Sequence record: PQ133623.1 | From: Klebsiella phage P7641 | Reading direction: 5' to 3' (one strand) | Length of the DNA stretch: 38,822 nucleotides | Shown: positions 3,797-6,182 of the stretch, in pieces | Layout of the letters: every line of letters starts with the position of its first letter | Position numbering within the stretch: the first letter of the stretch is position 1 | Notes under the pieces: model-generated | The model's database searches: none | Seen by the model: only the letters and a program-made list of their open reading frames with translations | Told to the model about the DNA's origin: nothing | Translations under genes and position numbers: made by a program

Positions 3797-3820
3797 TTGC
3801 ACAATGGAAAAGAACAAAAA

Positions 3821-4972
3821 ATGACCAAAATTTCAATCAACCATGTCATTGTTCACGAGTTACTCAAAGAAGCCCAAAAAGATTTTGATCACTCGAAACG
3901 GTATAATCTTCGTGACACTGAACTTGATAAATCAAACAAAATTGTACAACAACTGGTAGATGGTGTTGTCGAATTATATGGGACTCGCGGTAATCTAGCA
4001 CATCATGGTATTTTCAAAGAGGATCCCTCACTCAGGGGCCCTGTTCCAGATTTGTTTGATAAATATTACAATGATAAAAAATCTGATTCCTCTTCATTTA
4101 TAAACCTCACAAAACAAATTATGAAGCAAATGTACGAGGAGGCCAAAAAGCAACCTTGGTCATCAGGTGGTTATGTTGTTTTTACTGATTATATATTGCA
4201 AGGTTTACGATTTATTTTAGTTACGATGATAAAAAAGAAAAATGGTGTTACCATAAGCGCCAACTTAAACCCTGAAGAAATGATCCACCTAGAGCTCAAC
4301 TATATAAACCAAGCAGCAAGAGTCAACTTTCATCGCTATTTCGAGTACAACTCAGCTCCAGATGATAAAAAATCGCAAATAAATTACCTGAGCTTCATAA
4401 GTAAAACAAATGGGCAGTCTGCTTCTGCATATTTTATTGCGGCGCTTGGTTGCGATAAAGGGTTAGCTTCAGCAGGAGCCACACGAAAACTTCCTAATGA
4501 AGCTAGGAAATTTTTCAAAAAAAATACAGAAACACTCCCTATCGCTGAAGAATTCAGGAACAAAATAATAAAATATCTCGAAAAGCAATGTGAGTCCAGT
4601 TTGCCAGCCAGCTTGTCAGATATAGAAGCCATTGGCTTTGAAGAACTGTCTATTTTTCCAGATGAGAAAAGAAATGAAATATTATCTGGATTGATGCAAC
4701 ACCTCAATAGTGAGGGGGTTGGCATACCGACTGATTTCGTAATAAATAAAACATCCCTAGACAAACTCAAAAAAGTAATGTATAAAAACCCATTATATAG
4801 TTTCAACTTCGATAAAGAACTTCTTGGCGATAATGCTGATGCTAGAATTTTTTATGATGAAGTAACTGGCAATCTTTGTTTTAATAACCTCCCTGAGGAA
4901 GCAAGATCTAAAATAAGAGCAGCGCTTAAAGAGAAAGCAAAATTAATTAATACTGAGAACGAAAGTGAATAG
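3821..4972 (+). CDS. nucleoid-associated protein NdpA/YejK family (NA37) homologue, phage-borne
   Basis: Alignable blocks with E. coli YejK across the whole length: ISINHVIVHEL vs LDINQIALHQL; GGYVVFTDY vs GGxVLFCHY; YLSFISK..FIAALGCDKGL vs YLTFLKG..FMDFLGASEGL; ARIFYDE vs ERIFWDP. First in-frame ATG is at 3821 with a GGAAAAG SD; the start at 3797 in the ORF track is TTG. Strongly AT-rich. Confidence 0.85.
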   Translation: MTKISINHVIVHELLKEAQKDFDHSKRYNLRDTELDKSNKIVQQLVDGVVELYGTRGNLAHHGIFKEDPSLRGPVPDLFDKYYNDKKSDSSSFINLTKQIMKQMYEEAKKQPWSSGGYVVFTDYILQGLRFILVTMIKKKNGVTISANLNPEEMIHLELNYINQAARVNFHRYFEYNSAPDDKKSQINYLSFISKTNGQSASAYFIAALGCDKGLASAGATRKLPNEARKFFKKNTETLPIAEEFRNKIIKYLEKQCESSLPASLSDIEAIGFEELSIFPDEKRNEILSGLMQHLNSEGVGIPTDFVINKTSLDKLKKVMYKNPLYSFNFDKELLGDNADARIFYDEVTGNLCFNNLPEEARSKIRAALKEKAKLINTENESE

Positions 4973-6182
4973 TTTAAAAGTTGTTGTCGAATTATTTAGA
5001 ATATCCGGCACACCTGATTGCAATGGTGAAACATTTTCTGCGTCTTTAGAATTTACTGATAGCAGCATAGCTATAATTAAACCGATCTTATCTGGAGATT
5101 TTTCTTATGGCCGCTTTATTGAACTAGATATAGATGACGAAGAGATACAAAGTATAGAGGAAATACCATCGCAGGGTGAAAGAATTAACTTTACTTTCCT
5201 TGTCAGCCAATCAAGCTCTGAACGTTTTTATACGACAGCAAATGAATTATTAAAAGTAAACAAAATAATGCGTGGCTCTCTACCGAGCCAGTTCTATCTC
5301 ATTGATTCTGATTACCTTTATGGCGAAAACAACAAGCCGGAAGAAATTGAAAAAATTGAAGCCATATGTAGTATGATTACTGCACTATCAAAACTATCAC
5401 ATTTCCATGACATTAAAGAGAATGGAAGTTCAAATTTTTACCGCTTAGTGTTCGTTTTGAATTCCGAATCAAAGTCATCTTCTGCAGTAATAGAAACCGT
5501 CTTAAACGACAAGGTTTTATCTTACCCTAAAATTGATTACTCCTTAATAAACTCTTTGGTTTCAATTGATCCAAGCACCGACCTTCACTATGACGAAAAA
5601 ATAAATACCTTCCGAAACACTTTGATTGAATACATTAAATCAGCTGATAACGATTTCTGCGAAATAATAAAAAATTGGACTTTAATATGTAATTTATATC
5701 GTAATAACCTTGCAGTCTACATGTCTGCATTTTCTTTTCAAAAATCAAGAAAGGAAATAGCCGAAGCTGAACTTGACTACGCAGATAAAATATCAAAAAT
5801 AATAACCGATATTACTAACAAAGCCTTAGCAATACCAATTTCCCTAATTGGTTCTATTGCAATATATCAATTAAAATCAAATATGGAAATATATATTACT
5901 TTTGTGGGGCTCACAATCACAAGTATAATTATGACGTTAACACTGTTTTCTCAAAAGAAACAGCTAACACGTATAACTCATGCAAAAGACATTGTATTCT
6001 CGTCTATCGAGGATAAAGTTCTCGATGAACAATCCGATATTAAAATACGTTTAACAGAAGCGAAGTTCGAACTTAAAAAAAATGTCAGATTTTCTAATTT
6101 GATTTTAGATTTTCTTATATCACTAAGTTGGGTGCCAGTATGTATTGGCACCACTGGAATATTATTCAAGTTATTTAACTAA
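4965..6182 (+). CDS. membrane-anchored protein of unknown function (NdpA-like partner)
   Basis: 405 aa with a ~290-aa soluble N-terminal domain and three C-terminal TM helices. GTG start overlaps the upstream stop (GTGAATAG). Strongly AT-rich. Its stop overlaps the Q stop on the opposite strand. Confidence 0.6.
   Translation: MNSLKVVVELFRISGTPDCNGETFSASLEFTDSSIAIIKPILSGDFSYGRFIELDIDDEEIQSIEEIPSQGERINFTFLVSQSSSERFYTTANELLKVNKIMRGSLPSQFYLIDSDYLYGENNKPEEIEKIEAICSMITALSKLSHFHDIKENGSSNFYRLVFVLNSESKSSSAVIETVLNDKVLSYPKIDYSLINSLVSIDPSTDLHYDEKINTFRNTLIEYIKSADNDFCEIIKNWTLICNLYRNNLAVYMSAFSFQKSRKEIAEAELDYADKISKIITDITNKALAIPISLIGSIAIYQLKSNMEIYITFVGLTITSIIMTLTLFSQKKQLTRITHAKDIVFSSIEDKVLDEQSDIKIRLTEAKFELKKNVRFSNLILDFLISLSWVPVCIGTTGILFKLFN

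Follow-up and report, generated by a model that had tools for sequence, protein, structure and literature searches.

The 38,822-nucleotide (nt) sequence of Klebsiella phage P7641 (PQ133623.1; "the window" below always means this whole stretch) carries two overlapping genes, here called A and B, between the antiterminator gene Q and the putative late promoter. Taken together, the evidence makes it likely that this cassette is a divergent anti-phage defence system, carried as lysogen-expressed cargo, in which an NA37-family sensor is paired with a membrane effector, as in the systems described as DS-1 and type II PANGU. The mechanism reported for type II PANGU would most likely apply here too. 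Our own data contribute the gene structure, homology to DS-1, strict pairing, co-divergence of the two proteins, the partition of charge in B, its hydrophobic helices and the location of the cassette in a defence hotspot. The literature on its relatives contributes the defence phenotype (DS-1 and type II PANGU) and, for type II PANGU, the need for both genes, abortive infection, relocalization of the nucleoid-associated protein (NAP) and nanomolar binding between the NAP and an acidic domain. An earlier sequence-only reading of this DNA had proposed an anti-phage module of an undescribed type. The idea of such a module is strongly supported by the homology to DS-1, the type II PANGU architecture and the pairing seen in 11 of 11 look-ups, but the type of system has already been published, DS-1 first as a preprint (January 2025) and then in Science (2026), PANGU as a preprint in April 2026. 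From the letters of the DNA and without experiment, that reading arrived independently at the pairing of an NA37 sensor with a membrane effector as a concept of defence, which two laboratories validated experimentally in 2025–26.

Listing of the open reading frames (ORFs) in the window returned two long ones on the plus strand, 3797..4972 and 4965..6182. Gene A encodes an NA37/YejK-family NAP, the putative sensor. Its start is most likely the ATG at 3821 (3821..4972, 383 amino acids (aa)) and not the alternative TTG at 3797 given by the ORF lister, because the 383-aa product is identical to a public Klebsiella protein and homologues measure 379–388 aa. That public entry, "MULTISPECIES: nucleoid-associated protein [Klebsiella]", is found on approximately 46 contigs. 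Gene B (4965..6182, plus strand, GTG start) encodes a 405-aa partner, the putative membrane effector, and is identical in sequence to a public Klebsiella "hypothetical protein" on approximately 38 contigs. These exact matches indicate that the host belongs to the K. pneumoniae complex. The two genes overlap by 8 nt, within GTGAATAG. Guanine-plus-cytosine (GC) content falls to 0.29–0.37 over 3600–6300, compared with 0.51–0.57 in the flanks, and is 0.339 for the cassette versus 0.498 for the rest of the window, so that both the overlapping, co-oriented arrangement and the marked AT-richness described previously were recovered. A and B are not chance ORFs, since 383 and 405 codons stay open in DNA of 34% GC and both products have strong family matches.

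Gene A matches the NA37 family over its full length, with E = 1.1e-48 against Pfam NA37, E = 2.8e-79 against phrog_3767 (PHROG) and E = 6.6e-16 against the solved YejK structure (PDB 9be2), which agrees with its first identification as an NdpA/YejK homologue. Although it shares this full-length fold family with chromosomal YejK/NdpA (NF001557; PDB 9be2), it scores 130.1 bits (E = 1e-37) against the NCBIfam YejK equivalog model NF001557, far short of the cut-off of 341, and it is AT-rich, borne on mobile elements and always coupled to B. By these measures A is not a housekeeping YejK orthologue, a role that the sequence-only reading had already thought improbable.

DS-1, numbered D390 in the DefensePredictor study (DeWeirdt, Mahoney and Laub; bioRxiv January 2025, Science 2026; PMC13092281), consists of a 391-aa YejK-domain protein (DS-1A, WP_000355468.1) followed 2 nt on by a 404-aa hypothetical protein (DS-1B, WP_000150292.1). 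In E. coli MG1655, a clone of DS-1 under its native promoter reduced plating of Bas1 by 7.6 logs, of Bas26 by 2.7, of Bas3 and T3 by 1.7 and of T5 by 1.0 (PMC13092281, Table S7). The result is marked as replicated, and YejK is placed among the domains newly validated in defence, with no mechanism given for DS-1 (PMC13092281). The cassette in the window has the same gene order, near-identical protein sizes (391 + 404 aa in DS-1, 383/391 + 405 aa here), tight coupling and AT-richness; its first gene is likewise NA37/YejK-like, and its second is homologous over approximately 300 residues that include a stalk and the transmembrane (TM) region. Against the NCBIfam model NF053868 DS1_1_antiphage ("DS1_1, nucleoid-associated anti-phage protein"), A scores 86.4 bits (E = 1.8e-24; cut-off 330), and against NF053869 DS1_2_antiphage ("DS1_2, anti-phage protein") B scores 103.2 bits (E = 1.5e-29; cut-off 315). 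Since both scores lie far below the equivalog cut-offs, the pair belongs to the DS-1 superfamily but falls outside the equivalog family.

Direct comparison is consistent with this placement. BLASTP aligned A with DS-1A at 24% identity over approximately 190 residues (E = 4e-9) and B with DS-1B at 24% over approximately 190 residues (E = 8e-10); with roughly 21–24% identity for both proteins, the window pair and DS-1 form separate subfamilies. All 55 members of the B family match DS1_2 and no other NCBIfam model. Comparison by hhalign of the window-B family alignment (n = 55 sequences) with that of DS-1B (n = 45) gave 99.3% probability and E = 2e-20 over 303 columns, covering B residues ~84–405 and with them the hydrophobic region and the stalk helix. 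No alignment to DS-1B was obtained for roughly the first 85 residues of B. The first genes also differ at their N-termini. DS-1A starts MDITCLECG...CDKCG, for which a NinF match by HHpred is tabulated (PMC13092281), and so has a zinc-ribbon extension (NinF-like, CxxC...CxxC) that A lacks; A begins MTKISINHVIVHEL and runs straight into the NA37 domain without Cys pairs. B additionally matches phrog_5023 (PHROG; E = 1.3e-84). It has no match in Pfam, and neither A nor B has a match in PADLOC, the 2023 release of PADLOC-DB having no model for either. The cassette represents a new and divergent branch which RefSeq names "nucleoid-associated protein" and "hypothetical protein" and which current annotation does not see. 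Missed by PADLOC (2023) and lying below the NCBI naming cut-offs, this candidate subfamily should be entered in catalogues of defence systems, the more so in view of the interest in Klebsiella phage therapy.

The sequence-only reading had expected the NA37 gene and its partner to be conserved as a pair elsewhere, and this was seen in every genomic look-up: an NA37 gene lies directly upstream of the B homologue in 11/11 cases, at a spacing of −8 to +5 nt, over a range of relatedness that extends from 94% identity down to a profile E of ~1e-37. The contexts (our locus labels in brackets) are K. variicola (L001/L002), E. coli (L003–L005), Dickeya (L006/L007), Serratia (L008), a 38%-identical family member, Cronobacter (L009/L010), DS-1-type pairs in K. 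pneumoniae (L011) and Yersinia (L012/L013), a marine gammaproteobacterium (L014), and two distant profile matches (L019 and L020/L021). In the nine loci where it was measured, the A–B spacing is −8 to +2 nt, and the GC content of the cassette is 31–35% across all enterobacterial hosts. Identities of A and B co-vary with r = 0.97 over 45 locus pairs, which are non-independent, and much of this r is driven by the split into two subfamilies. Carriers of the pair include lambdoid prophages, a P2-like prophage, satellite-like islands with integrase, AlpA and primase (DUF927) genes, and a defence island. The last is the marine locus L014, where the pair (9191–14189) sits in an integrase-bounded island beside DUF4145, AAA_21/AAA_15, AbiEii, DUF6088 and ResIII/SNF2 helicase genes, which is a typical defence island. 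The B-like protein of L014 has 527 aa and is named "SH3 domain-containing protein" in the source record.

An exhaustive profile search with B recovered 935 representative clusters at E ≤ 1e-3, of which 181 reached E ≤ 1e-30; almost all are full-length, at approximately 400–430 aa, and the B superfamily is therefore large. Hosts of the window subfamily include Klebsiella, Raoultella, E. coli, Shigella, Serratia, Dickeya and Cronobacter, among others, and the E. coli version of the cassette is present in full length in 30 of 5,426 complete genomes. In E. coli NZ_CP059947.1 the cassette match is split into two pieces with an annotated IS1 transposase between them, an interruption by IS1. At the nucleotide level, megablast with the cassette found no match in deposited phages or plasmids, and its sole match in complete E. 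coli genomes was 46 nt of the promoter element described below. A tblastn search of phages with B gave a single weak match, and a degenerate-pattern scan of genome contigs for B yielded no confirmed relative. Membership in the window subfamily could not be confirmed for WP_016159279.1, a 408-aa E. coli protein predicted by DefensePredictor.

An AlphaFold2 (AF2) model of B built on the family alignment (mean predicted local distance difference test score 87.4) shows an N-terminal alpha/beta domain to approximately residue 200, a helical region, a long helix at 238–287 and further helices through the hydrophobic part. Residues 1–280 (4965..5804, plus strand) are predicted to form an acidic, cytoplasmic alpha/beta domain, with a net charge of −16 and an isoelectric point (pI) of 4.66 (family median charge −12), while the C-terminal part is basic; DS-1B is partitioned in the same way (−9 and +5). 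The long helix (238–287; 5676..5825, plus strand) would act as a stalk and is the best-conserved part of B (mean conservation 0.78), sharing with DS-1B the motifs FSFxK...E...K...KALxIP in the hhalign comparison. Conservation is lowest (0.51) in residues 1–85, the same segment that does not align to the DS-1B family, and a further conserved motif comprises D206, H208, E211 and R217. B reads as two parts, a variable module that would recognize the partner and an effector core that is conserved, as the comparison of the two subfamilies suggests. This separation of head and core is new, and the contrast between a variable acidic head and a conserved stalk/TM core provides direct targets for mutagenesis of type II effector action.

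Three C-terminal TM helices had been proposed for B, and by hydropathy two of them are clear and one is marginal. A hydrophobic helical hairpin at residues ~283–330 (5811..5954, plus strand) comprises the marginal first helix (residues ~283–301, Kyte–Doolittle maximum 1.42) and a clear second helix (307–330, maximum 1.94), and the last hydrophobic helix (376–404; 6090..6176, plus strand) has a maximum of 1.85 and includes P391, which is invariant in the family alignment. These TM assignments come from hydropathy, and the AF2 model has helices at the same places. The second hydrophobic helix is followed by the basic residues SQKKQLTR, which suits a cytoplasmic location of the N-terminal domain. 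A Foldseek search of the PDB with B gave nothing significant (best E = 0.64).

In type II PANGU, a YejK-like NAP (Pag2A) is combined with a transmembrane effector (Pag2B) (Li et al., bioRxiv April 2026, 10.64898/2026.04.06.716658). The functional data were obtained with PANGU-Ecu, which needs both of its genes and whose growth curves, like its phage yields, point to abortive infection; after infection with T4, Pag2A-GFP no longer stays with the nucleoid, and in Pag2B a C-terminal TM domain is preceded by an acidic N-terminal "DMK" domain that mimics DNA and binds Pag2A with a dissociation constant (KD) of 19 nM (10.64898/2026.04.06.716658). In type I PANGU, the mutations by which T4 escapes fall in endonuclease II and suggest degradation of the host genome as the trigger; the mode of Pag2B activation is left open, and the preprint is silent on prophage context and on DS-1 (10.64898/2026.04.06.716658). 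The DS-1 paper and the PANGU preprint do not cite each other, and we equate DS-1 with type II PANGU by inference from their architecture. Compared by description only, the window cassette resembles type II PANGU in being bicistronic, with a YejK-like NAP followed by a partner that has an acidic N-terminal part and a C-terminal TM region. Its gene spacing, an 8-nt overlap here and the range given above for the nine measured loci, is under the 40 base pairs (bp) set for such operons, and the size of the B superfamily is in line with the broad distribution reported. The charge of B residues 1–280 fits an acidic DMK domain, making this region a candidate partner-binding module with a putative DNA-like shape and putative binding to A.

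A mechanism can be proposed from this comparison. In the lysogen, the cassette would be driven by a promoter of its own that faces away from the late promoter pR′; A would bind the host nucleoid, and B would reside in the inner membrane in an inactive state with its acidic N-terminal domain in the cytoplasm. Degradation or remodelling of the host chromosome by an incoming phage would deprive A of its DNA substrate, and the freed A could then bind the acidic, DNA-like N-terminal domain of B. Binding would switch on the stalk and TM core, leading to membrane damage or another form of cell arrest, and the infection would abort.

The same observations could instead reflect superinfection exclusion, in which B blocks DNA entry at the inner membrane, like Sie or Imm, with A as an accessory or regulator, and in which protection is direct and non-abortive. 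B is indeed a prophage-encoded membrane protein in a lysogen-oriented cassette, the complete loss of Bas1 plaques with DS-1 (7.6 logs) and the narrow DS-1 spectrum would fit an entry block too, and the fold search assigned no effector activity to B. We nevertheless regard exclusion as improbable, given that type II PANGU shows growth arrest at high multiplicity of infection and no phage amplification, that its NAP relocalizes after infection has started and is bound by the acidic domain at 19 nM, and that a simple entry blocker would not be expected to be so strictly paired and coupled with a cytoplasmic DNA-binding protein, or to diverge along with it. An addiction module, with B as a membrane toxin restrained by A and the pair stabilizing the prophage as a toxin–antitoxin system, is the least probable of the explanations considered and in our estimate very unlikely. 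It would account for the presence on mobile elements of a translationally coupled pair of small genes with a membrane protein among the products, and many abortive-infection systems are formally toxin–antitoxin modules. However, neither the single genes nor the pair are toxic in PANGU, where the NAP is an activator and not an antitoxin, proteins of 383 and 405 aa are large for classical type II modules, and no toxin or antitoxin family in Pfam or NCBIfam was matched by A or B.

The cassette had also been likened to lambda RexA/RexB. The logic is shared, in that Rex is, and the cassette would be, a two-gene exclusion system expressed in the lysogen, combining a cytoplasmic sensor of a nucleic-acid-related signal with a membrane effector and acting by abortive infection, but the resemblance goes no further. 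Pfam contains models for RexA and RexB, and a Pfam scan at E ≤ 1 returned NA37 and noise for A and nothing for B. RexB also differs from B in being polytopic and channel-like and in lacking a large soluble domain. The rex genes, moreover, lie in the immunity region and are co-transcribed with cI, whereas the cassette lies approximately 5 kb from the cI-like repressor gene, between Q and the late leader.

Comparison of genomes indicates that the cassette occupies an exchangeable slot. Its B gene is convergent with Q (6179..6526, minus strand; PF06530, E = 1.5e-42), the stop codons of the two genes overlap and the gene ends share 4 nt. Every lambdoid context shows such an overlap of 3′ ends between B and a PF06530 Q gene, and the Q genes concerned are of one family, 67–94% identical to that of the window. 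Sibling Klebsiella phages with a common backbone lack the cassette, which is therefore dispensable for the phage: in vB_VIPKPNMC05 the order is Dam, a RusA-like gene, DUF968, a different Q and ~550 bp before the holin, and in Kpn_R1 a late leader 97% identical up to window position ~3593 runs straight into another Q gene. Homology to the K. variicola prophage starts at ~3697, ~120 bp upstream of A.

Other cargo is found at this site. In Klebsiella phage ST846-OXA48phi9.1 (MK416021.1; L018), a complete Kiwa system (2663–4055; KwaA E = 1.6e-82, KwaB E = 5e-144) takes the same slot in the same orientation behind the same conserved upstream element, and the Q–pR′ interval is for this reason best regarded as a hotspot for defence cargo. 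Kiwa resembles the window cassette in lying opposite to the late genes and in joining a membrane protein to a soluble partner, but its proteins are unrelated, given that the PADLOC library that detects Kiwa in L018 has no match for A or B, and in Kiwa the membrane protein gene comes first. DS-1-type pairs use the Q/pR′ slot as well, in the K. pneumoniae (L011) and Yersinia (L012) prophages. Recognition of the interval as a shared, exchangeable defence slot is new to this analysis. In the Stx2a_1447 locus (AP012536.1; L017), the slot holds an overlapping pair of genes for 343 and 179 aa (3110–4141 and 4134–4673, plus strand in the orientation of the locus) that has no match in Pfam, PADLOC or NCBIfam and is a candidate defence system by position. 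The slot is thus common to Stx phages, has conserved recombination anchors on its flanks and still contains cargo of no known family.

The position between Q and the late promoter, the latter putative, agrees with what was proposed at the outset, but the further equation with the stx position does not hold: the cassette lies upstream of pR′ in the opposite orientation, whereas stx lies inside the late transcript. In L017, stx2AB is on the other side of the conserved element, further down the late operon, after a methylase gene and three tRNA genes. No tRNA gene was found in the window, unlike the Q-to-stx interval of Stx phages.

Slot and pairing also bear on a further explanation, that A is a regulatory or "stealth" phage NAP that silences or organizes prophage or host DNA, with B as a membrane anchor or an unrelated conversion protein and no role in defence. 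A is a bona fide NA37 protein that scores higher against the YejK model than against DS1_1, NAP genes on mobile elements are known from reviews, and the RefSeq labels of the pair say nothing beyond "nucleoid-associated protein" and "hypothetical protein". We consider this unlikely, and somewhat more so than exclusion, in view of the homology of B to the validated DS-1B, the movement of the pair as a unit among unrelated mobile elements into a slot that carries Kiwa elsewhere, and its absence from sibling phages with the same backbone. A defence system accounts better than any of the three alternatives for the pairing, the homology and the hotspot context.

Within the 120 bp upstream of A lies a block of ~60 nt that is common to all prophage contexts whatever their cargo, the DS-1-type pairs included, and that the satellite islands lack. 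The block was found in 76 phage records, among them Stx1- and Stx2-converting phages, cdtI, SfII and mEp460, where it lies at the end of Q or just beyond it, and also in approximately 2,400 of 5,426 complete E. coli genomes. That this element is solely the cassette's own promoter was considered and rejected, since it is common to unrelated cargos and missing from the satellite islands. It probably corresponds to a Q-dependent late promoter pR′ with a short terminated leader and the Q-loading region. The putative pR′ (3725..3765, minus strand) comprises a −35-like TTAACG (3760–3765), a 16-nt spacer and a −10-like TGTACT (3738–3743), the −10-like consensus across aligned contexts being (C/T)(A/G)TA(A/C)T on the minus strand. 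An invariant TAAGAGTGG occupies 3725–3733, where a sigma-dependent pause element would lie, and the conserved element (3725–3765, both strands) contains the palindrome GCGTACGC. A terminator-like hairpin with a T-run (3679..3694, minus strand), resembling tR′, is found ~40 nt downstream of the putative pR′, a position that is kept in other phages.

A divergent cargo promoter that overlaps the −35 side of pR′ is plausible. It would comprise a −35 TTGCGT (3751–3756), a 17-nt spacer and a −10 TACTCT (3774–3779) on the plus strand (3751..3779). In the alignment TTGCGT is invariant, and a TAnnnT hexamer stands 17–18 nt downstream of it before every cargo in the slot; a stricter consensus scan of the window missed this promoter. 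When the phage itself grows lytically, early transcription running rightward through Q would continue antisense across the cassette, because no terminator lies between the convergent B and Q genes, and may silence it. In phage phi80, a similar layout keeps the Tai defence gene silent (PMC11364771); for the present cassette, antisense silencing is speculation.

These strands can be joined into a broader picture, which we offer tentatively and which as a whole is doubtful. The window pair would be a functionally distinct and hitherto unrecognized branch, with its own trigger and a Klebsiella phage spectrum set by the fast-evolving acidic module, and the stalk/TM core would form a CorA- or ClyA-like oligomeric pore gated by the NAP. 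The Q–pR′ interval would be a general and not yet described defence hotspot of lambdoid phages, Stx phages included, in which a bidirectional promoter element expresses the cargo in lysogens and early transcription through Q turns it off in the lytic cycle.

Overall, the gene order of the window is that of a complete lambdoid temperate phage in circular permutation, and its ends, described below, suggest a predicted provirus or a viral contig that was cut between genes. The genes for packaging, head and tail extend from 38822 to 19494 on the minus strand, integrase (16149–17141) and a cI-like repressor (10927–11622) are encoded on the plus strand, and Dam, RusA, DUF968 and Q follow from 8734 to 6179 on the minus strand. 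Downstream of the putative pR′ come two holins, an endolysin and an Rz-like spanin (2978 to 1273, minus strand), the first holin gene being 2592..2978 (minus strand; PF16931, E = 1e-34). Within the late leader, between the putative pR′ and this holin, an element resembling the STnc100-family small RNA (sRNA) was found at 3231..3419 (minus strand; Rfam RF02076, 82.9 bits against a gathering score of 47, E = 2e-17), followed by two terminator-like sites before the holin (3104–3123 and 3029–3052, minus strand). STnc100 is also present, in two copies, in the K. variicola prophage L001/L002 and is related to the PasD sRNA of Stx-phage origin (2026 preprint).

Three further regions of the window contain possible accessory genes. 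A second strongly AT-rich island (GC 0.30–0.33), immediately upstream of the integrase, contains one gene, of 290 aa (15008–15880, plus strand), which matches phrog_12528 (function unknown) and, weakly, Csx27 in PADLOC (E = 2e-6) and is possibly a further accessory or defence gene. Two small AT-rich ORFs that lie downstream of the lysis genes (475–864 and 836–1147, minus strand; GC ~0.32–0.38) match phrog_20796 and phrog_21707 (function unknown) and have no match in Pfam or PADLOC. Between the integrase region and the tail-fibre genes, opposite to the tail genes, lies a gene for a 379-aa alginate-lyase-family protein (18308–19447, plus strand; PF05426, E = 1e-34), whose role may lie in depolymerizing polysaccharide or capsule or in lysogenic conversion. 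Both ends of the window coincide with gene boundaries, position 1 being the stop codon of the minus-strand ORF 1..351 and position 38822 the start codon of the ORF 38358..38822.

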